A stretch of DNA of 59,705 bases, taken from assembly GCA_035476235.1 (NCBI GenBank), contig DATILQ010000266.1, forward strand, positions 1 to 59,705, in the 5' to 3' direction. Position numbers and translations under genes: made by a program. Positions 5,405-42,600 of this stretch are shown in pieces; the first letter of the stretch is position 1; every line of letters starts with the position of its first letter. Source of the DNA: Burkholderiales bacterium (GTDB lineage Bacteria; Pseudomonadota; Gammaproteobacteria; Burkholderiales; SG8-39). A model generated the notes under the pieces. It saw only the letters and a list, made by a program, of their open reading frames with translations. It had not been told where the DNA came from and ran no database searches.

Positions 5405-7060
5405 ATGCGAGCCAGACTGATGTTGACACTAGCCGCCACTGCCGCCGCGATGGCTCTTCCTCCGGCCATCCATGTTGTCCGCGCTCAAGGTCAGGCGGCC
5501 CTCGCCGGCATCGTCAGCTCCGAGCCCGAAGGCAAGATGGAGGGCGTCGTCGTCACCGCCCGCCGGGCCAAATCGATCGTCCAGGTCAGTGTCAGCACCG
5601 ACGCGGACGGCCGCTACAGCTTCCCGCGGAACCGGTTGGAACCTGGCGAATACACGCTCAGCATCCGCGCCGTGGGCTACGACATCGATTCCCCGGCCAA
5701 GGCGACTGTAAACGGGAAAGCCGCGACGGCCGACATCAAGCTGAAGAAGACAAGGAATCTCGCCGGCCAACTCACCAACGCCGAGTGGATGATGAGCATC
5801 CCCGGCACCGAAGAGCAGAAGGCCGGACTGCTCAATTGCGTCGGCTGCCACACGCTCGAGCGTGTCATGCGCTCGACGCACGATTCCGACGAGTGGACGC
5901 GCGTGATCAGCCGCATGATGGGCTATGGCGCCGTAAGCCAGCCGATCAAGCCCCAACCCATGCTGGATCGCGCTCGCGCGGGAACGCCCGAGCAATATCG
6001 CAAGCTGGCCGACTATCTCGCGACCATCAACCTGAGCGCTGTCGACCGATGGCCGTACGAACTGAAGACGCTGCCGCGTCCCAAGGGCCGTGACACTCGC
6101 GCGATCGTCACCCAGTACGACGTGGTGCGGCCGACGAGCGAGCCGCACGACGTGCTGGTCGATAAGGAAGGCAAGGTCTGGTACACCGATTTCGGCGAGA
6201 TGTTCATCGGCAAGTTCGATCCGAAGACGCTCAAGCTCGTCGAATATCCGATCAAGAAGTTCAAGGAAAAGGCGCCGACCGGACTGCTAAGCATCGAGTT
6301 TGATCACGAAGGCAAGATCTGGTTCGACACGATGTATCAAGGCTCGCTCGGCTGCCTCGATCCCAAGACCGGCAAGATCGCCTATTACCCGCTGCCGCCC
6401 GAATACAACAACGACACCGTGCAGCTCAACTTCACGGGACTGCGCTACGACGTCGACGGAAAGGTGTGGACCAAGAGCGTGGGCACGCAGCACATCTTCC
6501 GGCTCGATCTGAAAACCAGCAAATGGGAGCGCTTCCACCCGACCGACTACCTCCCGGAGAGCGCGCCCAAGAACGCTACCATCTATCAGGTCATTTCGGA
6601 CTCGCAAAACAATCTGTGGATGGCCGAATTCACCGCGGGACATCTGGGCAAGATCGACGCCAAGACAACGAAAGTGACGTGGTACCCGATACCCACGCCG
6701 AACGCTCGCGCCCGCCGCATGGTCATCGACGACCAGGACCGGATCGTGGTGACTGAATATCGCGGTAACAAGGTCGCGGTATTCGACACCAGGGCGGAAA
6801 AATTCACGGAGTACGATTTGCCGCCCCGCACATATCCGTACCGGGCCAATTTCGACAAGAACGGCGAAATCTGGGCGTCGACGATGCACACCGACCGGGT
6901 CGTACGGCTCGATCCCAAGACCGGCAACGCTGTGCAATACCTGATGCCGTCCGACACCAATATGCGCACGGTGTTCGTCGACAACTCGACGACGCCGACG
7001 ACGTTCTGGGTCGGCAGCAACCACGACCACCGGATCGTTAAGGTCGAGCCACTCGACTAA
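5405..7060 (+). CDS. Secreted protein: carboxypeptidase-regulatory-like beta-sandwich, single CxxCH heme-c motif, and a Vgb/SMP-30-like beta-propeller
   Basis: Signal peptide; GVVVTARR...DADGRYSF...GEYTL block; CVGCH at about residues 145-149; then repeated blade-like segments (GKVWYTDF, GKIWFDT, NLWMAEF, RIVVTEY, GEIWAST). Confidence 0.8.
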   Translation: MRARLMLTLAATAAAMALPPAIHVVRAQGQAALAGIVSSEPEGKMEGVVVTARRAKSIVQVSVSTDADGRYSFPRNRLEPGEYTLSIRAVGYDIDSPAKATVNGKAATADIKLKKTRNLAGQLTNAEWMMSIPGTEEQKAGLLNCVGCHTLERVMRSTHDSDEWTRVISRMMGYGAVSQPIKPQPMLDRARAGTPEQYRKLADYLATINLSAVDRWPYELKTLPRPKGRDTRAIVTQYDVVRPTSEPHDVLVDKEGKVWYTDFGEMFIGKFDPKTLKLVEYPIKKFKEKAPTGLLSIEFDHEGKIWFDTMYQGSLGCLDPKTGKIAYYPLPPEYNNDTVQLNFTGLRYDVDGKVWTKSVGTQHIFRLDLKTSKWERFHPTDYLPESAPKNATIYQVISDSQNNLWMAEFTAGHLGKIDAKTTKVTWYPIPTPNARARRMVIDDQDRIVVTEYRGNKVAVFDTRAEKFTEYDLPPRTYPYRANFDKNGEIWASTMHTDRVVRLDPKTGNAVQYLMPSDTNMRTVFVDNSTTPTTFWVGSNHDHRIVKVEPLD

Positions 7061-28773: not shown

Positions 28774-29679
28774 GTGCCGTACTCGGTCGAAGGCAAGCTC
28801 GTCGTCGCGATTTCGTCGCGCGCGCTGCTCGACTTCGAGGACGAGAACCGCGTTTTCGAGCGCGACGGCGAGGACGCCTATATCGCGCTGCAGCTCGCGC
28901 GCCTGGACGTGCCGGCGCGCGAAGGGGTCGCGTTTCCGCTGGTGAAGAAGCTCCTCGCTTTCAATACGCCGCAGGCGCAACGCGTCGAGGTCGTGATCCT
29001 GTCGAAGAACGACCCGGTGTCGGGCCTGCGGGTGTTCCGCTCGGCCGAGCGCGCAGGGCTGCGCCTGGAGCGGGGTGTATTCACGCGCGGAAGCAACCCG
29101 TATCGCTACCTTGACGCTCTGAAGGCCAACCTGTTCCTGTCGGCGAACGAAAGCGACGTGATGAGCGCGCTCGACTCGAAGGTGCCCGCGGCGCGCGTCT
29201 ACCCGGAGTCGGCGCAGGCGGCGAGCCGCCATTCCGGCGAGGTGCGCATCGCCTTCGACGGCGACGCGGTCCTGTTCTCCGACGAGGCGGAGCGCGTATA
29301 TCAGAAAGACGGCCTGGATGCGTTTACGCGCCATGAGGCGGCGCATGCGCTCCAGCCGCTGCCGCCGGGCCCGTTCAAGCCGTTGCTCGAAGCGCTGCAG
29401 CGCCTGCAGGCGGCCGCCGGCACCGACGTGCCGATGCGCCTGCGCACCGCGCTGGTGACCGCGCGCAGCGCGCCGGCCCACGAGCGCGCGGTGCGCACGC
29501 TCATGGAATGGAACATCGCGGTGGACGAAGCGATGTTTCTCGGGGGCCTCGACAAGGGGGGGTTCCTGAAGGCTTTCGAGCCGGACTTCTACTTCGACGA
29601 TCAGCGCGGCCACGTCGATTCCGCACGCGCGCATGTCGCTGCCGGCCACGTGCCCTACGGGGTTGCGAACCTGCGCTAG
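28774..29679 (+). CDS. 5'-nucleotidase (cytosolic IMP/GMP-specific-like family)
   Basis: GTG start. KLVVAISSRALLDFE..., VVILSKNDP, RIAFDGDAVLFSDE and FYFDDQ blocks match this family as I remember it. Confidence 0.75.
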   Translation: MPYSVEGKLVVAISSRALLDFEDENRVFERDGEDAYIALQLARLDVPAREGVAFPLVKKLLAFNTPQAQRVEVVILSKNDPVSGLRVFRSAERAGLRLERGVFTRGSNPYRYLDALKANLFLSANESDVMSALDSKVPAARVYPESAQAASRHSGEVRIAFDGDAVLFSDEAERVYQKDGLDAFTRHEAAHALQPLPPGPFKPLLEALQRLQAAAGTDVPMRLRTALVTARSAPAHERAVRTLMEWNIAVDEAMFLGGLDKGGFLKAFEPDFYFDDQRGHVDSARAHVAAGHVPYGVANLR

Positions 29680-30878
29680 AGGAACAGCTCCCGCGGGTCG
29701 ACCTGGAGCTTGCTCTGCTCCATGGTGCGCCGGATCCGGTAGGGCTCGTCCGGCCGCAGCTTGGGATCCTTGTCGAGGTCGAGGATCTTGTGCGGCCGCA
29801 TCGGGTTGCCCTGGCCGTCGAGCACCACCATCACGCGCGGCTTGAGGCGCCGCACCAGGTTCTGCGCGATGACGATGCCGACTTCGGCGGAATTGAGCTC
29901 CACCACGCTGCCTACCGGGAACGCGCCGACGCACTGGATGAATTGCTCGACGAGCTCGGAGTGATAGCCGGTGCCGCGCTCCCGGTACAGGAAGCTGAGC
30001 GCGCTCGATGGCGACAGCGTCTCGGCGTAGGTCCGCACCGCGGTCAGCGCGTCGAAGGTATCGGCGATCGCCGCGAGCGAGCCGTAGAGCCCGATCTGCT
30101 CGGCCTTGAGCCCGCGCGGGTAACCGCTGCCGTCCTGCCGTTCGTGGTGCAGCAAGGCAAGCTCCGGCAGCCGCGACGGCAGGCCGGGCGTCGCCTGCAG
30201 GATCTCCGCCGACAGGGCGACGTGCTTTTTCGCGAACTCCGCCTGCTCCGGCGTCAGGGGTCCCTGCTTCTCCATGATCGAGGCCGGCAGCTGGGTCTTG
30301 CCGACGTCCTGCAGCAAGCCGAGCAATCCGAGCAGCTCGAGCTCCTCGCGCGCCAGCTCCAGGAAGCGCGCGAACACGATCATGTAGATGGAGACCTGCA
30401 GGGCGCGCGCATGTGCCGCCGCGCTCTTTTCGCGCAGCTTGGAGACCAGCAGCAGCGCATCGGGATTACGCACGACGCTGTCGGTGAGGCGCGTCACCGA
30501 TTCCCTGACTTCCCTGCCCTCCAGGACGGTACTGCCCTGGGTGAGCGGCCGCAGAAGCTCGTTCACGGCGGCGACGGTGTGCGTGTAGACCGGGGCCGCG
30601 CGCTGCACCTCGGTTTCGACATTGACCGTTTCGGGATAGACGGTGTTGCCGCGGATCTTGAAGCTGGGCAGCGCGCGCGCCCGCGAGCGATCCTCGAGCC
30701 CGGTTTTCTCCACGTCGACGAAGACGTGCTTGCAGAATTTCTTCAGGGCCTCCAGCTGCTGGTCGGTGCGCAGGTGAAAGCCCTGGAACATGAAAGGCGT
30801 ATCGGTCCACGGGCGATCGAGCTCGGCGATGTACATGCCGAACTCCAGCTGCCCCACCGGAACCTGTTTCCTCTCCAC
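29676..30878 (-). CDS. HD-GYP domain cyclic-di-GMP phosphodiesterase-type protein with a DUF3391-like N-terminus
   Basis: N-terminal LEFGMYIAELDRPW and C-terminal HHERQDGSGYPRGL (HD-GYP signature). Confidence 0.9.
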   Translation of the reverse strand: MERKQVPVGQLEFGMYIAELDRPWTDTPFMFQGFHLRTDQQLEALKKFCKHVFVDVEKTGLEDRSRARALPSFKIRGNTVYPETVNVETEVQRAAPVYTHTVAAVNELLRPLTQGSTVLEGREVRESVTRLTDSVVRNPDALLLVSKLREKSAAAHARALQVSIYMIVFARFLELAREELELLGLLGLLQDVGKTQLPASIMEKQGPLTPEQAEFAKKHVALSAEILQATPGLPSRLPELALLHHERQDGSGYPRGLKAEQIGLYGSLAAIADTFDALTAVRTYAETLSPSSALSFLYRERGTGYHSELVEQFIQCVGAFPVGSVVELNSAEVGIVIAQNLVRRLKPRVMVVLDGQGNPMRPHKILDLDKDPKLRPDEPYRIRRTMEQSKLQVDPRELFL

Positions 30879-30882
30879 CGCC

Positions 30883-32067
30883 TTATTCTAGCGGCAAGGA
30901 CTCCTCGACGAGCGCGGCGAGGTAGCCCGCGCCGAGCGGAATCACCTCATCGTTGAAGTCGTAGTTCGGATTGTGAAGGAAGCAGCCGCCCGGGCCGCCG
31001 CCCTGGCCGAGCCACACGTAGGCGCCGGGGCGCTCGAGCAGCATGTAGGAGAAGTCTTCGCCTCCCATGGTGGGATCGGCGTCGGTGACCACGTTTCCCT
31101 TGCCGAAGATGCGCTCGCCGATGCGCGCGGCGAACTGCGCTTCGCGTTCGCTGTTGATGGTGGGCGGATAGCCCCGCCGGAAATCGACCTCGGCGCTCGC
31201 GCCGAATGCCTGCGCGACGTGCGTCGCGATTTCCTTCGCGCGCTTCTCCGCGAGCTCGCGCGTCTCGCGCCGGAAGCTTCGCACCGTGCCGATCAGGCGC
31301 ACGGAGTCGGGGATCACGTTGAATGCGCCGAGCTGGCTCGTCTGCATCGAGGCGATGCTCACCACCACCGCGTCCACGGGACTGACGTTGCGGCTCGCAA
31401 TCGTCTGCAGCGCGGTGATGATGTGCGACGCGGCGACGACCGGATCGATGACGAGGTGCGGCATCGCCGCGTGTCCGCCGCGTCCGCGCACGATGATCTG
31501 GATCTCGTCGGTGGCGGCCATGACCGGTCCTGCGCGCACCGCCAGCTTTCCGGGCGGCAGCCCCGGCCAGTTGTGCAGCGCATAGATCTCGTTCGCCGGG
31601 AAGCGCTCGAACAAGCCTTCCTTCACCATCACCTGCCCGCCGCCGCCGCCTTCCTCGGCAGGCTGGAAGATGAGATAGGCGGTGCCGCCGAAGTCGCGGG
31701 TCTCGGCCAGATAACGCGCGGCACCCAGCAGCATGGTGGTGTGCCCATCGTGCCCGCACGCGTGCATGCGGCCATCGTGGCGCGAGCGGTAGGGCACGCT
31801 CCCGGTCTCGTGCACCGGCAGGCCGTCCATGTCGGCGCGCAGGCCGATGGCGCGGCCGCCTGAGGTGCCGCGGCCTTTCACCACGCCGACCACCCCGGTC
31901 TTCGCCAGGCCGCGATGCACTTCGATGCCCCAGCTTGCCAGCTTGTCTGCCACCAGCGCCGAAGTACGGGTCTCCTCGAACGCCAGCTCGGGATGCGCAT
32001 GCAGGTCGTGCCGGATCGCCTTCAGCTCGGGGTGGTATTTGCGGATGTGCTCTACGGGGTTGCCCAT
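30883..32067 (-). CDS. M20D-family amidohydrolase (hippurate hydrolase / N-acyl-amino-acid amidohydrolase-like)
   Basis: Starting at the ATG at 32067: IRHDLHAHPELAFEE, ACGHDGH and FQPAEEGGGG blocks. Confidence 0.9.
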   Translation of the reverse strand: MGNPVEHIRKYHPELKAIRHDLHAHPELAFEETRTSALVADKLASWGIEVHRGLAKTGVVGVVKGRGTSGGRAIGLRADMDGLPVHETGSVPYRSRHDGRMHACGHDGHTTMLLGAARYLAETRDFGGTAYLIFQPAEEGGGGGQVMVKEGLFERFPANEIYALHNWPGLPPGKLAVRAGPVMAATDEIQIIVRGRGGHAAMPHLVIDPVVAASHIITALQTIASRNVSPVDAVVVSIASMQTSQLGAFNVIPDSVRLIGTVRSFRRETRELAEKRAKEIATHVAQAFGASAEVDFRRGYPPTINSEREAQFAARIGERIFGKGNVVTDADPTMGGEDFSYMLLERPGAYVWLGQGGGPGGCFLHNPNYDFNDEVIPLGAGYLAALVEESLPLE

Positions 32068-32087
32068 GGCCCCATTAGAATCCGGGC

Positions 32088-33131
32088 GTGCCCGCTTTCG
32101 CAAGCCTTCTCATCGCCTGGCAGCGCCGTCACGGGCGCAAAGGGCTTCCCTGGCAGGACACGCGGGACCCGTACCGCATCTGGCTCTCGGAAGTGATGCT
32201 GCAGCAGACGCAGGTGGCGGCGGTCATTCCCTACTACCGGCGCTTCGTCTCGCGCTTTCCAGACGTGCAGGCGCTCGCTCGCGCGGACGAGGACGAGGTG
32301 CTGCGGCTCTGGAGCGGCCTCGGCTACTACGCGCGCGCGCGCAACCTGCATCGGGCCGCTCGAAAGATCGTCTCCGAACACGGCGGCAGATTCCCGGATG
32401 CGGTAGACGAGATCGAGCAGATTCCCGGCGTCGGGCGCTCGAGCGCCGCGGCGATCGCGTCGTTCGCCTTCGGCCGCCGCGCTGCGATTCTCGACGGCAA
32501 CGTCAAGCGCGTGCTCGCCCGCTGCTACGGCGTCGAAGGCTGGCCGCGGGAGCGCGAAGTAGAAGCGAAGCTGTGGCGGCTTGCGGAGCGCCTGCTTCCC
32601 AAGGACGACGTTGGCGTCTACACGCAGGCGCTGATGGATCTCGGCGCGACCGTCTGCATAAGGAATCCGCGTTGCGAGGTGTGCCCGGTGAGGCGACGCT
32701 GCCTGGCGCGGCGCGAGAACCGGGCGCACGAGCTGCCTGCACCGCGACCAAGGAAGGAAATTCCGCTGAGAGACGCCACCTGGCTGCTGCTGTTGCACAA
32801 CCAGCAGGTCCTGCTCGAACGCAGGCCCGGCGCGGGGCTTTGGGGCGGTCTGTGGGCTTTTCCGGTGGCGAGCAACGCGGGATATGCGGCGCAAGCTCGC
32901 GAACTGGGTTGCGAGATCTCATCGACGCGCGAGCTGGAGCCGCTCGAGCACGGCTTCACCCACTTTCGCCTGCGCATCCGCCCCGTGCTATGCGGGGTCG
33001 CAAGAACGCTGCCGGGCGTCGCGGCCCCGGGGCGGCTCTGGATTGATCTGGAGGATGCCGCGCAGGCCGCCGCGCCGGCCCCGGTGAAAAAGCTCATCGC
33101 GCGGCTGCGCGCGACTAACGCGTCATGGTGA
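32088..33131 (+). CDS. mutY: A/G-specific adenine DNA glycosylase
   Basis: LPWQDTRDPYRIWLSEVMLQQTQV, GLGYYARARNLH, the Fe-S cluster Cys pattern (C...C..C.....C) and a NUDIX-like C-terminus. Confidence 0.9.
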   Translation: MPAFASLLIAWQRRHGRKGLPWQDTRDPYRIWLSEVMLQQTQVAAVIPYYRRFVSRFPDVQALARADEDEVLRLWSGLGYYARARNLHRAARKIVSEHGGRFPDAVDEIEQIPGVGRSSAAAIASFAFGRRAAILDGNVKRVLARCYGVEGWPREREVEAKLWRLAERLLPKDDVGVYTQALMDLGATVCIRNPRCEVCPVRRRCLARRENRAHELPAPRPRKEIPLRDATWLLLLHNQQVLLERRPGAGLWGGLWAFPVASNAGYAAQARELGCEISSTRELEPLEHGFTHFRLRIRPVLCGVARTLPGVAAPGRLWIDLEDAAQAAAPAPVKKLIARLRATNASW

Positions 33132-33549
33132 GGCGGATGCGGTTACGCCCGAAAACGTAGGCGTAATCGCGTGTCGCTGCCAGCTCCTTGGTGAGAAGGA
33201 CTCCGAGGCCGCCGATCGCGCGCCTTTCGAGCGTCGTCGTCATGTCGATAGGCTTGTCCGGCAGCCTGGCGTAGGGATTGAATGGCGGCGCGGTGTCCTC
33301 GTAGGTCACCTGTACCGCGCTGGGCCCCGCCTCGAGGCTCAACCATACGGGCGCATCGCAGTCCTGCCGATGGCCGTGCCGGATGGTGTTGATGAACAGC
33401 TCCTCCACGACCAGGTGGAGCCGCAGGCAGCGCTCCCGCTCGATGCCCGCCTGGTCGCAAAAATCTGTCAGGAACGCGGACAAAGGTCGCAACTCGGCGA
33501 GCCGCGACGGAAACATCGCCAAGCGGGAGTTTTTAACGCTATGGGCCAT
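33115..33549 (-). CDS. RsbW/SpoIIAB-type anti-sigma-factor-like Ser kinase (HATPase_c_2)
   Basis: 144 aa with N-box EELFINTIRHG and G-box GGLGVLL. Size and layout are those of partner-switching kinases. Confidence 0.8.
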   Translation of the reverse strand: MAHSVKNSRLAMFPSRLAELRPLSAFLTDFCDQAGIERERCLRLHLVVEELFINTIRHGHRQDCDAPVWLSLEAGPSAVQVTYEDTAPPFNPYARLPDKPIDMTTTLERRAIGGLGVLLTKELAATRDYAYVFGRNRIRLTMTR

Positions 33550-33601
33550 GGGATCCGGCGCATTATAGAATCCGTTGAAGCGACCTTAAGGGAGGGCCAT
33601 C

Positions 33602-34039
33602 ATGCGTTGGGCACTTTTGGTATGCCTGTTCTGCTTCGCGGCCGGCGTTTGGGCGGGCGATGTGGGGCAGATCAAGGCCGCTACGGGAGCGGTGTTCCTC
33701 GAGCGGCAAGGCCAGCGGCTGCCGGCCACGGCGGGCATGCCGGTGCAGGAGTCCGATACGCTGGTCACCGGCGCCGACGGCTCGGCCGGGGTGACGTTCT
33801 CCGATAACAGCGTGCTTTCGGTGGGCCCGGGCAGCGTATTGGCGATCGAGCGCTATGCGTTCGATTCGACCACGCACAACGGGCATTTCGATGCCTCGCT
33901 GAAGAAGGGAACGCTCGCCGTCGTCTCCGGCAAGATGGTCAAGCAATCGCCGGACGCAATGAGGGTGCGCACGCCTTCCTCGATCATGGGTGTTCGCGGT
34001 ACCGAGTTCGTCGTGAAGGTCACCGAACCGGGAAGCTGA
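33602..34039 (+). CDS. Secreted FecR-domain protein
   Basis: Signal peptide, then G.V.......G......G..V...D.L.TGADGSAGVTFSDNSVLSVGPGS... and the GVRGTEF motif. Confidence 0.8.
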   Translation: MRWALLVCLFCFAAGVWAGDVGQIKAATGAVFLERQGQRLPATAGMPVQESDTLVTGADGSAGVTFSDNSVLSVGPGSVLAIERYAFDSTTHNGHFDASLKKGTLAVVSGKMVKQSPDAMRVRTPSSIMGVRGTEFVVKVTEPGS

Positions 34040-34042
34040 GCG

Positions 34043-34711
34043 ATGCTGGTGCTGGCGCTCGGCGCGCTGGTCATCCTCGGCGCGATCTTTGCGCAGCCGG
34101 CGCCGCTCGAAGAGGCCGTCGTCGCAGCTCCGCCCAGCCCGGAGCGTCCTACCAGCACAGTCATCGTGCCGCCGGCGCCGCTCGAAGAGACCGTCGTGGT
34201 TCTGCCTAGCCTAGACGGTCATACCGGCACGGTCATCGTGCAGCGCGGCGGCGAGCGCCATGTGCTCAACCGGCCGTTTGCGGCGAGCCGGCTGGCGGGC
34301 GGGCAGTCCGAAATGGTGCAGCTATCCGCTGTCGAAGTGCGCCAGTCTTTCGCTGTCACGCTCGAAGCCCTGCCCGCCAGGCCGACCACGTTTCTGCTTT
34401 ACTTCGTGAGGGGCACCGACGAGCTGACCGACGAATCGAAACAGGAGCTGAAAAAGATCCTGGCAGAGCTGAAGCAGCGACCCGTCCCGAACATCATGGT
34501 CGTCGGGCACACCGATACCGTCGGCAAGCTTGAAGCGAACGACCTGCTGTCGGCACAGCGCGCCGAGCGGATGAAGGGCTTCCTCACCGAGATCGGAATT
34601 CCCGCCAGTCAGATCCAGACTGCCGGCCGCGGCGAGCGAGAGCTACTCGTGCCGACCGCCGACAACATCGACGAGCCGCGCAACCGGCGCGTCGAGATCA
34701 GCGTCCGCTAG
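34043..34711 (+). CDS. OmpA-like peptidoglycan-binding protein
   Basis: The C-terminal VVGHTDTVG...NDLLSAQRAERM...GRGE...NRRVEI is the OmpA_C signature. The N-terminus carries a duplicated PAPLEE(A/T)VV segment. Confidence 0.85.
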   Translation: MLVLALGALVILGAIFAQPAPLEEAVVAAPPSPERPTSTVIVPPAPLEETVVVLPSLDGHTGTVIVQRGGERHVLNRPFAASRLAGGQSEMVQLSAVEVRQSFAVTLEALPARPTTFLLYFVRGTDELTDESKQELKKILAELKQRPVPNIMVVGHTDTVGKLEANDLLSAQRAERMKGFLTEIGIPASQIQTAGRGERELLVPTADNIDEPRNRRVEISVR

Positions 34712-36689
34712 CGCCTGCGCCGTTCCAGCGCACGCAAAGCAGGGCAAGGTCGTCTGATTGCTCCGTAGTGCCGGTGAACTTGCGCACGTCCGCTCGCACC
34801 GCCGCGACGACCGCGTCCGGCGCGGCCGACGCGAGGGGTGTCAATACCGCATGCAGGCGCGCGGCGCCGTAGAACTCGCCCGCCGCGTTCATCGCCTCGG
34901 TCACGCCATCGGTGAGCACGCACAGCCACTCGCCCGCTTCCAGGACGCGGTGCCCGCTCGGATACTCGAAGCCCTCCAGCACGCATAGCGGCGGCCCGCC
35001 GGAATGCTCGACGCGTTCGGGGACGCTGCCCGGCCGGCAGGCAATCGGCGGCTCGTGGCCAGCGTTGCAGAAAGCCAGCGCGCCGCTGCGCACGTCGAGC
35101 AGCCCTGCGAACGCCGTGACGAAGAACGATTCCGCGTTGTCGCGGCAGATTTCCGCGTTTGCGAGCATGAGGAGCGCGCCGGGGTCGCGAGGGCCCCGCA
35201 GGGCGATGCTCTTCAACAGCGACTTGGACAGCGCCATGAACAGGCTGGCCGGAAGTCCCTTGCCCGAAACGTCGCCGACCACCAGGAACAGCCGGTCCGC
35301 GTCCAGCATGAAGCAGTCGTAAAAATCGCCGCCGACCATTCGCGCCGGCTCGAGCAGCGCGTCGAGGGCAAAGCCCGTCTGCCCGGCGAAAACCGTGCGC
35401 GGCACCGGCAGCAACCCCATCTGGATGCGCCGCGCGGCTTCCAGCTCGCCGGCGACGCGCGCCTGCGCTTCGCGCAGCAGCCGCCGCTGGCGGTCGGCTT
35501 CGGCAAACGTCGCGCCGAGCAGGGCCGCGAAGACGGCGATTGCCGCGAGCGCCGGAGCCGCGACGTTCAGCAACAGCCCGGTCATGAAGGCGAGGATCCC
35601 CGCGGCCGCCAGCGCGAGCAGGCCCGCCGCCAGAAGCGCGAAGGACATCCACGGGCGCGCTGCCGGAACGAACAAGACGAGCAGGACCCCCACGCCGGCC
35701 AGCAGCGCGGCTTCGGTCCACGCCGCGCCCGTGGGCCGGCGCAGATACGTGGCATCGAAAATCTGCTCGAGGATTTGCGCGTGCACTTCCACCCCTGGGA
35801 TGCGCTCGCCAAGCGGGGTGGCCTGGAAATCGAGCAAGCCCAATCCCGACACGCCGACGAGAACGAATTTGTCGCGGAACAACTCGGCAGCGGCCTTTCC
35901 GGAAAGCACATCCTCGGCCGAGACGAAGCGCTGCGCATCGTGACGCCCGAAATACACGTTCAGCATGCCGTCGGACTGGATCGGAATGGACACGGAACCG
36001 ACATTGAGGTCCACCTGCTCGCCGCCGCGGTCGTCGATGCGCAGGTCCTGCGTGCCGGTGGCGATGCGAACCATCTCCACGGCAAGCGCCGGCACGATGA
36101 CTTTTCCGATGCGCGCAACCAGGGGGATTCGCCGGACGATGCGATCCGGCGAGTCGGCGCTGATCAGCCCGCGGCCGGCGGCTGCCCGATCGATCTCCGG
36201 CCGGCTCTGCAGCTGGCCATCGAACTGCCGTAACGGCAGCTCGCGCTGGCCGGACGACAGCACCGGCGCCACGTGCGGCGGATGCGGGAAACGGCGGTCG
36301 CGATAGTCGATCCCGGCGATGCCCAGCACCACCTTCCCGCCTTGGACCGCCTGCGCGAACGCCGCGTCGGCTCCCGCCACCGAGCGGTCCGGCTCGACGA
36401 ACAGCAGGTCGACGCCGATCGCCGCCGGCCCGGCGCGCGAAATGGCGCGCACGAGGTCCGCCGTAACGCTGCGTGGCCATGGCCACTGCCCCAGCGTGTC
36501 GAGCGAGCGCTCGTCGATGTCCACGATGACTGCCGGCGCGGAGCTGCGCACGCGCGGCATCAGCCTTTGATAACCGTCAAACAGGGTTTCGCGCAGCGCC
36601 GCGACCGGCGGCGACTCGAGGCCGATGAGCAGAACGCAGACGGCGAGCAGCGCTGCGCCTATCAGCCGCGGCGCTGAACGCAGTCTCAG
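34698..36689 (-). CDS. CHASE2 sensor, transmembrane region and PP2C (SpoIIE/RsbU-type) phosphatase; start codon uncertain (CTG 36689 or 36683)
   Basis: N-terminal TM, then CHASE2 blocks (VIVDIDERSLDTLGQWPWPR, IGVDLLF), three TM helices, and a PP2C domain with GGDFYD and VVGDVSGKG. The upstream part of the 904-aa ORF overlaps the MBL gene out of frame and is rejected. Confidence 0.85.
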   Translation of the reverse strand: MRLRSAPRLIGAALLAVCVLLIGLESPPVAALRETLFDGYQRLMPRVRSSAPAVIVDIDERSLDTLGQWPWPRSVTADLVRAISRAGPAAIGVDLLFVEPDRSVAGADAAFAQAVQGGKVVLGIAGIDYRDRRFPHPPHVAPVLSSGQRELPLRQFDGQLQSRPEIDRAAAGRGLISADSPDRIVRRIPLVARIGKVIVPALAVEMVRIATGTQDLRIDDRGGEQVDLNVGSVSIPIQSDGMLNVYFGRHDAQRFVSAEDVLSGKAAAELFRDKFVLVGVSGLGLLDFQATPLGERIPGVEVHAQILEQIFDATYLRRPTGAAWTEAALLAGVGVLLVLFVPAARPWMSFALLAAGLLALAAAGILAFMTGLLLNVAAPALAAIAVFAALLGATFAEADRQRRLLREAQARVAGELEAARRIQMGLLPVPRTVFAGQTGFALDALLEPARMVGGDFYDCFMLDADRLFLVVGDVSGKGLPASLFMALSKSLLKSIALRGPRDPGALLMLANAEICRDNAESFFVTAFAGLLDVRSGALAFCNAGHEPPIACRPGSVPERVEHSGGPPLCVLEGFEYPSGHRVLEAGEWLCVLTDGVTEAMNAAGEFYGAARLHAVLTPLASAAPDAVVAAVRADVRKFTGTTEQSDDLALLCVRWNGAGASGR

Positions 36690-37642
36690 AGATCGATCTC
36701 CATCCCGTCGTAGGCCGCCGAGACGCGCAGCGGCTGCGCGCCGCGGGTAAGCTCCTCGAGGCGACGCGTGTCCTTCAGCACGGCTTCGATCGCCGCGTCG
36801 CCGGAGCTGGGCTCGTGGTGGAACAGCACCAGGTGCTTGACGCCGGCCATCTGGCAGAGCTCGACCCCGACGATGTTGCTCGAATGGCCCCAGTCGGCCT
36901 TCACCGAGGCCACCTCGGCGAGCGAGTACATGGCGTCGAACACGACGACGTCGGCGTCCCGGAAGAAGGCGACGAAGGCCTCGGCCTCGCCGCGGTTCTC
37001 GAGCTTGTGCTCGGAGTCGGTGGAGTAGATCAGTGCTTTGCCGCCCCACTCGAACCGATAGCCGTAGGAATCTCCCGAATGACGCTGGATCTTGGGCGTC
37101 ACGCTCATGCCGCGCGCCACGTAGGTCTCGCCGGGCACGAGCTTCACGAACTCGATCTTCGCGGCGAGCTGGTCGAACGGCACCGGGAAACAGGGCGGCG
37201 CCTGCTGCAGCCGGAGCGCCTGCTCCAGGATATCGTGGCAGCCGTGGATGCGGATGGTCGTCCCCGGCACGTAGGCGGGTCCGAAGAAGGGAAAGCCCAT
37301 GATGTGGTCCCAGTGGACGTGCGACATGAACACGTTCACCGTCGCCGGCCGGCCGCCCTGTCGCGCCAGCACGTGAGCGCCGAAGGGCCGTGCCCCGCTG
37401 CCCATGTCGCACACGAAATATTCATTGCTGCCGGTCTCCAGCTCGACGCACGACGAGTGGCCGCCGAAGGTATGAGTGAGCGCGAACGGCAGCTCCCGCT
37501 GCGCAAAGGCGTAGGCCGCGCCGAACGACTCGAAACGCCGGCCGTCGGCCGCGACCAGGGCCTGGGCGAGCCTGTCCCGGACGTCGGCGGCGGTGAGCGC
37601 CACCGGCATTGAACCGCGCGTGCCCCAAAAGCGGACGCGCAT
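36686..37642 (-). CDS. MBL-fold metallo-hydrolase
   Basis: RFWGTRGS N-terminus, HVHWDH metal motif, later DSEH and H residues. 318 aa. Confidence 0.85.
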   Translation of the reverse strand: MRVRFWGTRGSMPVALTAADVRDRLAQALVAADGRRFESFGAAYAFAQRELPFALTHTFGGHSSCVELETGSNEYFVCDMGSGARPFGAHVLARQGGRPATVNVFMSHVHWDHIMGFPFFGPAYVPGTTIRIHGCHDILEQALRLQQAPPCFPVPFDQLAAKIEFVKLVPGETYVARGMSVTPKIQRHSGDSYGYRFEWGGKALIYSTDSEHKLENRGEAEAFVAFFRDADVVVFDAMYSLAEVASVKADWGHSSNIVGVELCQMAGVKHLVLFHHEPSSGDAAIEAVLKDTRRLEELTRGAQPLRVSAAYDGMEIDL

Positions 37643-37648
37643 GCCCGC

Positions 37649-38023
37649 TCAGCCGCGCTCGAAAGCTTCGACCGCCTCAGACGAAACCGAAGCGAGCGCC
37701 TCGCGCATCGTTGGGAAGACGTCGAAAACGAGGTTGAAGCGGCTGATCTGGAAAATTTCGCCGACCAGAGGCTGCAGGGAAGCGATCACCAGGCGGCCGC
37801 TGCGGCTGACGGCCTGCCTGGCGGCAAGCATCAGGCAGCGCAACCCGGCGCTCGACACATACTCGAGGCCGGACAGATCGAAGATCAGCGCCTGGCCCTC
37901 GCGCAGGCACGCGTCCAGGTGCGGAGCGAGGTCGTTCCTGAAGGCTTCGCAGTTGTCGTGGTCGAGACGTCCCACGGGCGCTACCACCCGGACTTTGGCA
38001 TAGTTTCGGTGCGCAAGCGCCAT
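37649..38023 (-). CDS. STAS-domain anti-sigma-factor-antagonist-like protein (RsbV/SpoIIAA type)
   Basis: 124 aa. FDLSGLEYVSSAGLRCL matches the phosphorylatable-serine loop (DLSGV.F.DSSGL). Confidence 0.85.
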   Translation of the reverse strand: MALAHRNYAKVRVVAPVGRLDHDNCEAFRNDLAPHLDACLREGQALIFDLSGLEYVSSAGLRCLMLAARQAVSRSGRLVIASLQPLVGEIFQISRFNLVFDVFPTMREALASVSSEAVEAFERG

Positions 38024-38050: not shown

Positions 38051-38371
38051 TTAGTGGAGAACCTTCATGAAGACGGTTCGCGAAAGCAGTTTACTGCCTT
38101 CGCTCTCGGATACGGGTTCGACGCTGACGCAGTCCTTGTGCGGAGCAATCGCAAGGTACGCGGCCTGCCCTGCGACGACGCGCTGAGTAATCGCGGTCTC
38201 CCGCCAGCCTGACAAGGGGGAGTAACAGCGTATCGCGACGCGGTGCTCGCCGGCCGGCAGCTTGAGCCGCGTGTGCTGACCCGATCGGATCGCCGCGATG
38301 TCGTCCTGATTGACGTTGATGTAAAAACTGGTGTCATCGGCAATGAAGGCGCGAGGGCGGATGAGCGCTAT
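38051..38371 (-). pseudogene. DUF2846-like domain ORF with no usable start codon or signal peptide; possible remnant
   Basis: The C-terminal 106 aa of ORF 38051-38578 (IALIRPRAFIADDTSFYINVN...LKLPAGEHRVAIR...AGQAAYLAI...) look like DUF2846. Upstream, the frame overlaps the LON-domain gene with R/A-rich composition and has no ATG/GTG/TTG after that gene's stop. Confidence 0.4.
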
Positions 38372-40712: not shown

Positions 40713-41166
40713 CCGGTTGCCACGCCGTGATCAGCTGGTGAAGGGCGCGAGCGTCCGGCGCCCCGCTCATCGCCTCGCGCAGCGCTTTGTCGCTGAACAT
40801 CTGCGCGAGCTCGGAAAGGATCTGCAGGTGCTTCTCGGTCGCCTTTTCGGGAACCAGCAGCACGAATACCAGGCTGACGGGATTGCCGTCGGGGGCGTCG
40901 AAGGGCACCGGCTGCGCGGGGCGCAGGAACGCGCCCAGCGCCTCCTTCAGTCCCTTGATGCGGCCGTGGGGAATCGCTACCCCCTGGCCGAGCCCGGTCG
41001 AGCCGAGGCGCTCGCGCGCGAACAGGCTGTCGAAGACCAGGCTGCGGGCGAGGCCGTGATGGTTCTCGAACAGCAGGCCGGCCTGCTCGAACAGCCGCTT
41101 CTTGCTCGACACCTGCAGGTCGAGCACGATGTGGTCGGCGCGCAGAAGATTGGCGACGAGACTCAT
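40681..41166 (-). CDS. ptsN: PTS-Ntr EIIA (nitrogen regulatory IIA protein)
   Basis: GQGVAIPHGR phosphorylation-site histidine block. Located directly after rpoN. Confidence 0.9.
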   Translation of the reverse strand: MSLVANLLRADHIVLDLQVSSKKRLFEQAGLLFENHHGLARSLVFDSLFARERLGSTGLGQGVAIPHGRIKGLKEALGAFLRPAQPVPFDAPDGNPVSLVFVLLVPEKATEKHLQILSELAQMFSDKALREAMSGAPDARALHQLITAWQPDAAGQRRAAA

Positions 41167-41196
41167 TGGAGCGCGCGGATTATACGCGCTTCTCCC

Positions 41197-42600
41197 CTAT
41201 AGGGATTTTCTTTGATTGACCGGCGGGATCTGCAGCGCCTCACGGTATTTTGCAATCGTGCGGCGGGCCACCACGATGCCCTGCTCGCCGAGGATCTGGG
41301 AGATGCGCGCGTCCGAAAGCGGGGCTTTCGCGTCCTCGGCGGCCACCAGCTGCTTGATCAGCGCGCGGATCGCGGTCGAGGACGCGGCGCCGCCGGCCTC
41401 GGTGGCGACGTGGCTGCCAAAGAAATACTTGAGCTCGAAAGTGCCGCGCGGCGTGGCCATGTACTTCTGCGTGGTGACGCGCGAGATGGTGCTTTCATGC
41501 AGCCCGAGCGCCTGCGCGATCTCGCGCAGCACCAGCGGCCGCATCGCGACTTCGCCGTGCTCGAGGAAATGGCGCTGCTGCTCGACGATCGCCTGCGATA
41601 CGCGCAGGATGGTGTCGAAGCGCTGCTGCACGTTCTTGATCAGCCAGCGCGCCTCCTGCAGCTGGGAGGCGATGGCGGCGCCGCTGTTGCGTGCTCCCGC
41701 CGCGAGCTCGGCGTACAGGCGGTTGATGCGCAGGCGCGGCATGGCGTCGGGATTGAGGCTCGCGCGCCAGACGCCGCGCTGCTTGCGCACGATGACGTCG
41801 GGAATCACGTAGCGCGTCTCCACCTTGGCGTAGGCGGCGCCCGGACGGGGGTTGAGCGCCTGGATCAGGCGCTGCGCCGCGCGCAGCGCCTCCTCGCCGG
41901 CGCCGGTGATGCTCTTCAGGCGCGTGTAATCGCGGCTCGCCAGCAGCTCCAGATGCTTTTCCACGATGTCGAGCGCAAGGCGGCGCGCCGGCTCATCGGG
42001 CATGATGCGCAGCTGCAGCGCCAGGCACTCCCTGGGGGAGCGCGCGCCCACGCCGGCGGGCTCCAGGTTCTGCAGGTGCCTGAGCGCGATGCCGAGCTCC
42101 TCGAGATCGGCTTCGGCCTCGGCGGGCAGCAGCGCGGCGATCTCCTCGAGCGGCTGGGTCAGATAGCCGTCTTCGTCGACGGCGTCGATCAGCAGCTGGA
42201 CGAATACGCGGTCGCGATCGCCGAGGTTGGTGAGCGAAAGCTGGCCGCGCAGGTGGTCGCGCAGCGTCGGCGTGTCCGGCGCGGTAAAGCTGCGGTCGCC
42301 GTCTTCATCGTCATCCGGCCCGCGCCAGCTGGAGGCGATTTCCGCCGACCAGTCGGTGTCGGGAGCTGCGGGCTCGGCGCTGCCGCTCGCGCCCGGGCCG
42401 CCCGCCGGCGCGGGCGCGGCAGGCGCGGCCTCGGGCTCGCCTTCGGCATCCTCGCGCTCGAGCGCCGGGTTCTCCATCAGCATGCGGTCGATCTCCTGGT
42501 TGAGCTCGACCGTCGACAACTGCAGCAGGCGGATGGACTGCTGCAGCTGCGGCGTTAGCGTGAGGTGCTGCGACAACCGGAACTGCAGGGACGGCTTCAT
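41197..42600 (-). CDS. rpoN: RNA polymerase sigma-54 factor
   Basis: N-terminal Gln/Leu-rich region I ([11 protein letters not shown]) and a C-terminal RpoN box ([10 protein letters not shown]). Confidence 0.95.

Follow-up and report, generated by a model that had tools for sequence, protein, structure and literature searches.

A predicted phospho-switch cassette that pairs a STAS protein with an MBL-fold hydrolase and has no adjacent sigma factor

Introduction

In Bacillus, the RsbU-RsbV-RsbW and SpoIIE-SpoIIAA-SpoIIAB systems combine a PP2C phosphatase, a STAS protein that is phosphorylated on serine and a kinase of the HATPase_c_2 family, with the sensor carried on a helical linker (PMC12143880). 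The same three kinds of protein are encoded at positions 33115-38023 of a 59,705-nucleotide stretch of DNA from a Burkholderiales bacterium (GenBank assembly GCA_035476235.1, contig DATILQ010000266.1), which was analyzed at its full length and is hereafter called the window. This six-gene interval, referred to below as the cassette, carries on the minus strand the genes for a STAS protein, a metallo-beta-lactamase (MBL)-fold hydrolase, a membrane phosphatase with CHASE2 and PP2C domains, and a kinase; between the last two, on the plus strand, lie the genes for a FecR-domain protein and an OmpA-like protein. Unlike the RsbU/V/W systems, the cassette is without a sigma factor in about 40 genomes, it places an MBL gene between those for the STAS protein and the phosphatase, and its sensor is a periplasmic CHASE2 domain accompanied by the FecR/OmpA pair.

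STAS/kinase/phosphatase modules that lack a sigma factor are common in Gram-negative genomes and their outputs are mostly obscure, whereas comparative genomics indicates a specific output enzyme for the module described here. Among described sigma-less switches, HsbR/HsbA and SypE/SypA resemble the cassette in using a STAS protein as an effector-binding switch. Another relative is the SiaABCD system of Pseudomonas aeruginosa, in which the switch protein SiaC, of the DUF1987 type, is a Thr-phosphorylated STAS-like protein and the output, SiaD, is a GGDEF cyclase, whereas the cassette has a canonical STAS protein with a serine and an MBL-fold hydrolase as its output; the sensors differ as well. 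What the two share is a membrane PP2C phosphatase and a small kinase that together set a switch protein controlling a nucleotide-signaling enzyme, the phospho-switch protein SiaC being the activator of the diguanylate cyclase SiaD (PMC8457831, PMC7647112). The cassette phosphatase is nevertheless not an orthologue of SiaA, since it scores 42.5 bits against an equivalog cutoff of 700, and the cassette contains no GGDEF gene. Overall, the logic of the cassette resembles the SiaABCD or HsbA/SypA type more closely than it does the sequestration of a sigma factor by RsbW.

The remaining parts of the cassette also have described counterparts. YfiBNR is a three-part envelope-stress sensor with a diguanylate cyclase output, and like the cassette it unites an OmpA/Pal-like binder, a periplasmic protein and an inner-membrane enzyme; only the OmpA-like domain is homologous (57.5 bits to YfiB against a cutoff of 128), and the likeness is an analogy for mechanism only. 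In the 'BiofilmReg' systems of Burkholderia and Pseudomonas (PA4035/PA4036-like), which are again found in Betaproteobacteria, an exported FecR protein with peptidoglycan-binding capacity is coupled to a CHASE2 histidine kinase (PMC5192318); there, however, the binding domain is a fused LysM and the output a histidine kinase and response regulator, in place of the separate OmpA-like protein and the PP2C-STAS-MBL series seen here. Similarly, a Campylobacterota cluster brings together a CHASE2 adenylate cyclase, a FecR outer-membrane protein, a TPR protein and a cAMP phosphodiesterase (PMC9239204). In that cluster, unlike the cassette, the CHASE2 protein is itself the cyclase that supplies the phosphodiesterase with substrate, and a layer made up of STAS, kinase and PP2C is missing. 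The cassette hydrolase, finally, shares its HxHxDH binuclear site and fold with the branch formed by YhfI, RNase Z (ELAC) and PhnP, and is set apart from that branch by an insertion of about 45 residues, a FWGxRGSxP motif and its linkage or fusion to STAS, the last of these being specific to its own family.

A preliminary annotation of the window made from its letters and open reading frames (ORFs), here called the sequence-only reading, could not match this combination to any described system. Indeed, in the literature searched, also for CHASE2 together with partner switching and for STAS together with MBL, we found no paper that describes this system, and the database names of the proteins are generic ('MBL fold metallo-hydrolase', 'anti-anti-sigma factor', 'CHASE2 domain-containing protein'). 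While sigma-less STAS/kinase/PP2C systems are already known, the predicted MBL-phosphodiesterase output, the pervasive fusion to STAS and the CHASE2/FecR/OmpA input are, as far as we searched, undescribed.

The six genes travel as a block

To place the window among its relatives, one genome per species (GTDB) was scanned with an alignment of the MBL family as query, and the best 80 loci were kept and annotated with hidden Markov models (HMMs) that had been derived in successive rounds from the proteins of the window. All 44 loci whose MBL protein is at least 51% identical to that of the window (L007-L050) proved to be of the cassette type. The complete arrangement, in which the STAS, MBL and CHASE2-PP2C genes run in one direction, the FecR and OmpA genes converge on them and the kinase gene follows in the first direction again, is present in 31 of these; five lack the kinase alone, five end at a contig edge and are consistent up to that point, and three are variants. 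In one variant (L015) the MBL gene lies beside a STAS-kinase pair of opposite orientation, in another (L026) the OmpA, FecR and kinase genes are missing, and the third (L034) consists of a fused STAS-MBL gene alone.

Some 40 further species-level genomes share the six genes with order and orientation unchanged, and the DNA on either side of them is unrelated. The carriers include many soil bacteria. For example, a relative with 90% identity (L004) shares both the gene order and the flanks of the window, whereas a relative with 76% identity (L001) keeps the order between different neighbors, namely an FAA hydrolase gene on one side and CDP-alcohol phosphatidyltransferase and UvrC genes on the other. 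By the labels of their metagenome-assembled genomes (MAGs), the hosts include Burkholderiales, Usitatibacter, Casimicrobiaceae, Rokubacteria, Alphaproteobacteria, Binatus and Chromatiales. Among cultured bacteria the cassette is found in Duganella flavida and a Rugamonas sp. (L028, L043), and because these Oxalobacteraceae can be grown the system is experimentally tractable. Homologues of the MBL protein itself number in the thousands; the 120 closest share at least 75% identity with it, and nearly all of these have a length of 318 residues.

All-vs-all clustering of the flanking ORFs revealed no seventh conserved gene; the recurrent families were generic (hybrid histidine kinases, ABC ATPases, SDRs) and occurred in at most 7 of 40 loci, and an additional member was therefore rejected. 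Since no further flanking gene is conserved, the six genes are the whole unit, which moves as a block and is horizontally mobile, and their clustering is far beyond chance. The kinase gene is the sole dispensable or relocatable member: it is missing in L016, L017, L019, L045, L046 and L090 and moved in L040, and 31 of the 36 loci that are otherwise complete have it. In the variants without it, Pfam searches of the extra ORFs gave no relevant alternative kinase or output.

STAS and MBL domains are repeatedly fused

The tie between the STAS protein and the hydrolase became most apparent when the MBL family was run with HMMER against 1.84 billion representative proteins, which returned 807 clusters at E <= 1e-30. 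In about 46 of the best 150 of these clusters the MBL domain is fused to a STAS domain, and the fusions come in three architectures: STAS-MBL proteins of about 420-460 residues, MBL-STAS proteins of about 440-465 residues, and MBL-STAS-protein kinases, with or without AAA_16 and TPR domains, of 700-1640 residues. A search seeded with the L034 fusion added more than 70 further STAS-MBL clusters. Some fusions lie inside the cassette, as in L046, L047 and L090, where a STAS-MBL gene is followed by those for CHASE2-PP2C, OmpA and FecR, and others are orphans with no phosphatase or kinase gene nearby (L087-L089). In 47 aligned STAS-MBL fusions the phospho-acceptor serine (S56) is invariant. Where the two genes are separate, the distance from the STAS stop to the MBL start is -7 to +57 nucleotides in nearly all loci, a 4-nucleotide overlap being frequent.

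Because gene fusion has occurred repeatedly and in several architectures, the comparison argues, in the manner of a Rosetta stone, that the STAS protein and the MBL enzyme form a functional and probably physical pair, and the natural fusions serve as an internal control for assigning the output. Membership of the MBL gene in the module was the least certain claim of the sequence-only reading, and it has become the strongest.

Two further observations concern these junctions. In the window the STAS and MBL ORFs lie in the same frame and are parted only by TGA-GCG-GGC (37640-37655), such that read-through of this single TGA stop would recreate the STAS-MBL fusion that is natural in other lineages. 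The giant MBL-STAS-Ser/Thr kinase proteins (P0137, P0162, P0170; L058 8001-12719, L072 2587-7062, L069 5072-7318), of which three were checked with Pfam, are carried by loci from Chloroflexota, and their architecture appears to be uncharacterised.

No sigma factor adjoins the cassette

To settle whether a sigma factor is nearby, the window and a set of 86 loci were searched with seeds for RpoE, SigB and SigF, followed by Pfam-validated hits of the extracytoplasmic function (ECF) type and an HMM built from these. No sigma-70-family ORF was detected with these seeds and this model anywhere in the window, whose one sigma gene is rpoN at 41197-42600, and the rpoN-ptsN-hprK-rapZ neighborhood is common to close relatives only, being missing in L001 and in other lineages. 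Among 40 orthologous loci, four have a sigma-70-family gene within about 8 kb, all of the ECF type and 3-6 kb away, and in none does such a gene adjoin the cassette. Since nearby sigma genes are this sparse and never adjacent, the absence of one beside the cassette is not a local accident, and the idea of a sigma factor displaced nearby was rejected for the window and the 86 loci alike. An adjacent sigma/anti-sigma pair in orthologous loci, which the sequence-only reading had named as a finding that would undo its view of a module without a sigma factor, was likewise not encountered.

The phospho-switch core is intact

Seven domains in the six proteins lie well above the Pfam gathering thresholds, and the motifs EYVSSAGL, GGDFYD, GDVSGKG, HVHWDH, the N-box EELFINTIRHG and the G-box GGLG are all found in the translations. 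With NCBIfam, the STAS protein is above the cutoff for the anti-sigma-antagonist superfamily (ant_ant_sig), and the other proteins have sub-threshold matches only. Ser58 of the STAS protein aligns with the phospho-serine of SpoIIAA and of TM1442, and this acceptor is invariant among 47 aligned cassette STAS orthologues. The kinase keeps its N-box (E-x-x-x-N) and GGLG in 36 orthologues; a PDB sequence search with it returned no match. The PP2C domain aligns with Rv1364c, SiaA, RssB and SpoIIE with its metal-binding aspartates in place, its GGDFYD, GDVSGKG, TDG and DD motifs are conserved, with the metal-binding motifs kept in 43 orthologues, and its sub-threshold NCBIfam matches are SiaA and RssB.

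Hydropathy places hydrophobic segments of the phosphatase at residues ~9-24 and 325-397, which corresponds to one N-terminal transmembrane (TM) helix ahead of a periplasmic CHASE2 domain, with three further TM helices leading through a helical linker to the PP2C domain. This is the layout of a CHASE2 sensor, in which an N-terminal TM helix and a periplasmic domain precede three TM helices and the output, although TM1 is included only if translation begins at a non-canonical codon (see below). The locus encodes the STAS protein with a phosphorylatable serine, the HATPase_c_2 kinase and the PP2C phosphatase of an RsbU/V/W-type system, without an adjacent sigma/anti-sigma target. The three partner-switching roles, the domain assignments and the residues on which they depend were all proposed from the letters of the window, and they have held up in profile searches, in alignments with known proteins and across orthologues, as has the expectation that the genes would occur together elsewhere (31 of 44 loci complete).

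The MBL protein is a probable phosphodiesterase

In an alignment of 39 homologues, the metal ligands of the MBL protein are H108-x-H110-x-D112-H113 together with H188, D209, H253 and H275; H108, H110, D112, H113, H253 and H275 are invariant, and conservation reaches at least 90% for H188 and D209. The N-terminal FWGxRGSxP motif is invariant in the family. The AlphaFold2 model of the protein (pLDDT 91.8, pTM 0.90) shows an inserted helical segment of about 45 residues (residues ~14-56) that follows the first strand. When this model was compared with the PDB by Foldseek, the first match was YhfI of B. subtilis, followed by the ELAC homologue of B. anthracis, RNase Z, PhnP, PqqB, PNGM-1 and yeast PDE1; the probability was 1.00 for YhfI, RNase Z and PhnP, at 15-18% identity and, when normalised to query length, a TM-score of about 0.6. 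Searching PDB sequences with a profile gave the same group together with CPSF73 and RNase J, and a Foldseek search of viral structures for an Apyc1-like match yielded only weak, generic MBL matches.

Curated models score far below their cutoffs, with 49.0 bits against 292.95 for RNase Z (TIGR02651) and 51.7 bits against 400 for the cyclic-nucleotide-degrading phosphodiesterase (NF041851), and by these scores the protein is therefore not an orthologue of RNase Z, PhnP or a named cyclic-nucleotide phosphodiesterase. YhfI prefers cAMP and cGMP (PMC9117128), and the 'atypical class II phosphodiesterases' of PF12706 include the cAMP phosphodiesterases Rv1339 and CpdA (PMC9293780). Judged from its modeled fold, the MBL protein is a probable binuclear-metal phosphodiesterase, for which a cyclic nucleotide, a linear nucleotide or RNA would be the leading guesses at a substrate.

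A proposed periplasmic front end of FecR, OmpA and CHASE2

About 36 loci have the FecR and OmpA-like genes beside that of the CHASE2 phosphatase, the pair being in convergent orientation in every case, which bears out both the arrangement read from the window and the proposal that the pair belongs with the phosphatase. Both proteins have signal-like N-terminal segments by hydropathy. The FecR protein (145 residues) is composed of a signal peptide and a FecR domain only, and the OmpA-like protein shows sub-threshold NCBIfam similarity to YiaD, PA1041, YfiB and Pal. No ECF sigma factor or TonB receptor is encoded in the cassette, so that it does not have the make-up of FecR/FecI-type anti-sigma signaling, in which a FecR protein with a cytoplasmic anti-sigma domain and a TM helix works with an ECF sigma factor and a TonB-dependent transducer. 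Since pairing of FecR with CHASE2 has been reported with other outputs, the combination of FecR, a peptidoglycan binder and CHASE2 appears to be a reusable input device. YfiBNR suggests by analogy that envelope state may determine whether the OmpA-like protein tethers its FecR partner or lets it go. The cassette would tie the CHASE2 sensor, which has no known ligand, and stand-alone FecR proteins to a simple read-out in the form of STAS phosphorylation and phosphodiesterase activity.

Variation was seen in this part of the cassette. In a Burkholderiales MAG the OmpA-FecR pair is tandemly duplicated (L013 3392-5573). The N-terminal region of the OmpA-like protein of the window (34043-34300) holds a direct repeat, PAPLEE[A/T]VV, which suggests a small internal duplication; the protein has 222 residues as compared to 197-198 in relatives.

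A model for the cassette and its alternatives

Together these data suggest a self-contained cassette in which a STAS/MBL pair is set by phosphorylation of the STAS serine and no sigma factor takes part, a model that we consider an even call. The FecR-domain protein and the peptidoglycan-anchored OmpA-like protein would report the state of the envelope or peptidoglycan to CHASE2, as their conserved linkage and the reported pairings imply. CHASE2 would then signal across the membrane and along the helical linker to a PP2C dimer by a coiled-coil/dimer mechanism of the RsbU type; such a linker mechanism was shown for RsbU and has been suggested for sensor-PPM proteins in general (PMC12143880). The PP2C domain would strip phosphate from Ser58 of the STAS protein and the RsbW-type kinase would restore it, activities for which the motifs are in place. 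Lastly, the phosphorylation state of the STAS protein would decide the binding and switching of the co-translated MBL enzyme, its partner in the natural fusions. Of the possible roles of the enzyme, that of regulated output is the most likely. Direct control of the enzyme by STAS is favored over sequestration mediated by the kinase because the fusions involve STAS and not the kinase, and because only the kinase is ever missing or relocated. The STAS/kinase/PP2C half of the partner-switching scheme drawn from the window thus stands, and strict sequestration by the kinase is the part that has become less likely.

The locus could also be read as canonical partner switching with an unlinked target, in which the kinase sequesters a sigma factor or other regulator that dephosphorylated STAS sets free, and the MBL enzyme serves in an accessory role or as an additional output. 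Known Gram-negative partner-switching systems can have unlinked targets, the STAS, HATPase_c_2 and PP2C genes are exactly the RsbV/W/U trio, and the kinase is retained in most otherwise complete loci. Yet the fusions join MBL to STAS rather than to the kinase, and the kinase gene is the least conserved of the six and is missing from several cassettes that keep the invariant serine; as no adjacent sigma gene was present in 40 loci and no other flanking gene is conserved, we consider it unlikely. Alternatively, the MBL enzyme might act in input or feedback by making or destroying a small molecule, for example a nucleotide, that is bound by STAS or tunes the kinase or phosphatase, the true output being the binding of STAS to something else. 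STAS domains bind nucleotides in some proteins, fusion and operon linkage fit this possibility equally, and the orphan fusions without PP2C or kinase nearby speak for it, whereas the phospho-serine, being invariant in the fusions, speaks for an effect of phosphorylation on the enzyme to which STAS is joined, and no further conserved gene is left to serve as the output. This arrangement, too, strikes us as improbable. That the MBL gene is a passenger, co-located without a functional tie to the phospho-relay, might be supposed from the distant family members that stand alone in unrelated contexts; its position between STAS and PP2C is, however, kept in about 40 genomes with different flanks, and STAS fusions arose repeatedly and independently in three architectures, by which this explanation is effectively refuted.

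Several points nevertheless weigh against direct control of the MBL enzyme by phosphorylated STAS. Fusion indicates a functional linkage and not its direction, and by that token the enzyme could equally serve input or feedback; similarly, the kinase may have a target encoded elsewhere in the genome. In the kinase-fused giants the canonical STAS serine is often Thr, and also Ile, Val or Ala, and because of these residues the coupling of STAS to MBL would seem not always to be based on a phospho-serine. The AlphaFold2 model of a natural STAS-MBL fusion (pTM 0.68) has a disordered linker and is without confident docking geometry. Relatives of the MBL protein at 30-45% identity stand alone in unrelated neighborhoods (Leptospira, Treponema, Verrucomicrobiota, Marinimicrobia and others), which points to an older enzyme family that was recruited to STAS control. 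A Pfam census of 109 neighbors of such distant homologues revealed no consistent partner and no STAS nearby; only four were 3'-5' exonucleases, for which one lineage (Puniceicoccales) is suspected, the census not reporting the loci. The 15-18% identity to characterised MBL phosphodiesterases, with NCBIfam matches far below cutoff, makes any assignment of a substrate tentative, and for the many loci that lie on MAG contigs the taxonomic labels may mislead.

Beyond the cassette, we put forward tentatively, at slightly less than an even chance, that the STAS + MBL clade is a widespread, unrecognised unit in which a phosphodiesterase is gated by STAS phosphorylation beneath varied input layers, with CHASE2/FecR/OmpA-PP2C-kinase here and a fused Hanks-type kinase/STAND in Chloroflexota. 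Should the enzyme turn out to act on a nucleotide second messenger or a particular RNA, direct STAS control of it would represent a new output class for partner-switching-like signaling and would provide a genetic handle on what CHASE2/FecR sensors detect. An enzyme that degrades a cyclic nucleotide or processes RNA would, moreover, tie the state of the envelope directly to nucleotide signaling or RNA turnover without transcription factors.

A probable non-canonical start of the phosphatase gene

The phosphatase gene has no in-frame ATG, GTG or TTG between 37412 and 36560. The codon at 36689 is CTG, which forms a CTGA overlap with the stop codon of the MBL gene and lines up precisely with the ATG or GTG at which 67%-identical homologues (P0329, P0338) begin; a 94%-identical homologue (P0271) starts instead at the position of the window's ATA 36662. 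The DNA at this start is the same in two independent assemblies (L091, L092), and it is therefore not a sequencing error; indeed, TCTCTGAGACTG (within 36560-36700, minus strand) is identical in the window, in both of these and in the 90%-identical relative L004. Gene callers on the L091 and L092 contigs picked ATG 36560, which drops TM1. Because CTG aligns with the homologous starts, because the DNA is the same in independent assemblies and because ATG 36560 would delete TM1, a non-canonical start, possibly by termination-reinitiation at CTGA, is likely. Of the close spacing on both sides of the MBL gene that had been taken as a sign of co-translation, the 6-nucleotide gap to STAS stands, and the 4-nucleotide overlap with the phosphatase gene hangs on this CTG. 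A programmed frameshift fusing MBL to the phosphatase was also considered; no slippery site is visible at the junction.

Gene layout and surroundings

The positions of the genes, domains and other features of the cassette are collected in Table 1.

Table 1. Features of the six-gene interval, in window coordinates
Feature	Position	Strand	Details
STAS-domain switch protein	37649..38023	-	124 aa; Pfam STAS/STAS_2, E ~1e-14
Candidate phospho-acceptor codon, Ser58 of STAS	37850-37852	-	motif YVSSAGLR (given as EYVSSAGL in the sequence-only reading)
MBL-fold metallo-hydrolase	36686..37642	-	318 aa; Pfam Lactamase_B_2, E 2e-13
CHASE2-PP2C membrane sensor phosphatase	34698..36689	-	663 aa if CTG 36689 is the start; CHASE2, E 4e-54; SpoIIE/PP2C, E 4e-46
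Phosphatase TM1	36618-36665	-	approximate; hydropathy
Phosphatase periplasmic CHASE2	35679-36638	-	approximate; PF05226, residues 18-337
Phosphatase TM2-4	35499-35717	-	approximate; hydropathy; helical linker next
Phosphatase PP2C/SpoIIE domain	34725-35300	-	approximate; PF07228
OmpA-like protein, exported, peptidoglycan-binding	34043..34711	+	222 aa; Pfam OmpA, residues 120-215, E 4e-19
FecR-domain protein, secreted	33602..34039	+	145 aa; Pfam FecR, E 4e-12; signal peptide MRWALLVCLFCFAAGVWA
Divergent intergenic region, kinase/FecR	33550..33601	.	52 bp; read from sequence
RsbW/SpoIIAB-type serine kinase	33115..33549	-	144 aa; HATPase_c_2 (PF13581) full length, E 4e-19

The genes are tightly packed. 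The FecR and OmpA-like genes are separated by 3 nucleotides, the 3' end of the OmpA-like gene overlaps that of the phosphatase gene convergently by 14 nucleotides, the kinase gene overlaps mutY convergently by 17 nucleotides at its 3' end, and the kinase and FecR genes diverge; the kinase gene is transcribed apart from the other cassette genes. Within the divergent region a perfect TATAAT lies on the minus strand 12 nucleotides before the kinase ATG, with no Shine-Dalgarno sequence, and AAGGGAGG precedes the FecR ATG on the plus strand; a consensus promoter scan of the 52 bp gave no full -35/-10 pair. If the TATAAT belongs to a promoter, its position would make for a nearly leaderless kinase mRNA. 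A possible role in anti-phage defense was also considered and rejected, the only PADLOC match being that of the OmpA domain to ZorB/MotB.

Upstream of the STAS gene, between it and a gene with a LON-substrate-binding domain, lies an ORF remnant (38051-38367, minus strand) with a weak match to DUF2846 (E 0.003, below cutoff) and no usable start codon downstream of the stop of the LON gene. In L004 this space measures only about 106 nucleotides, and the remnant is probably a gene fragment or an insertion. On the other side of the cassette, beyond mutY, the window encodes a 5'-nucleotidase-family protein, an HD-GYP protein (DUF3391 + HD_5) and an M20 peptidase (28774-32103); because their synteny is confined to close relatives (L004) and does not extend to the other lineages with the cassette, these genes probably have no connection with the module. 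Further away, rpoN and ptsN are spaced by only about 30 nucleotides in the window (41166-41197), where a Ribosomal_S30AE gene is missing; in L004 this ribosome hibernation factor gene is located between rpoN and ptsN, at 6407-6700.

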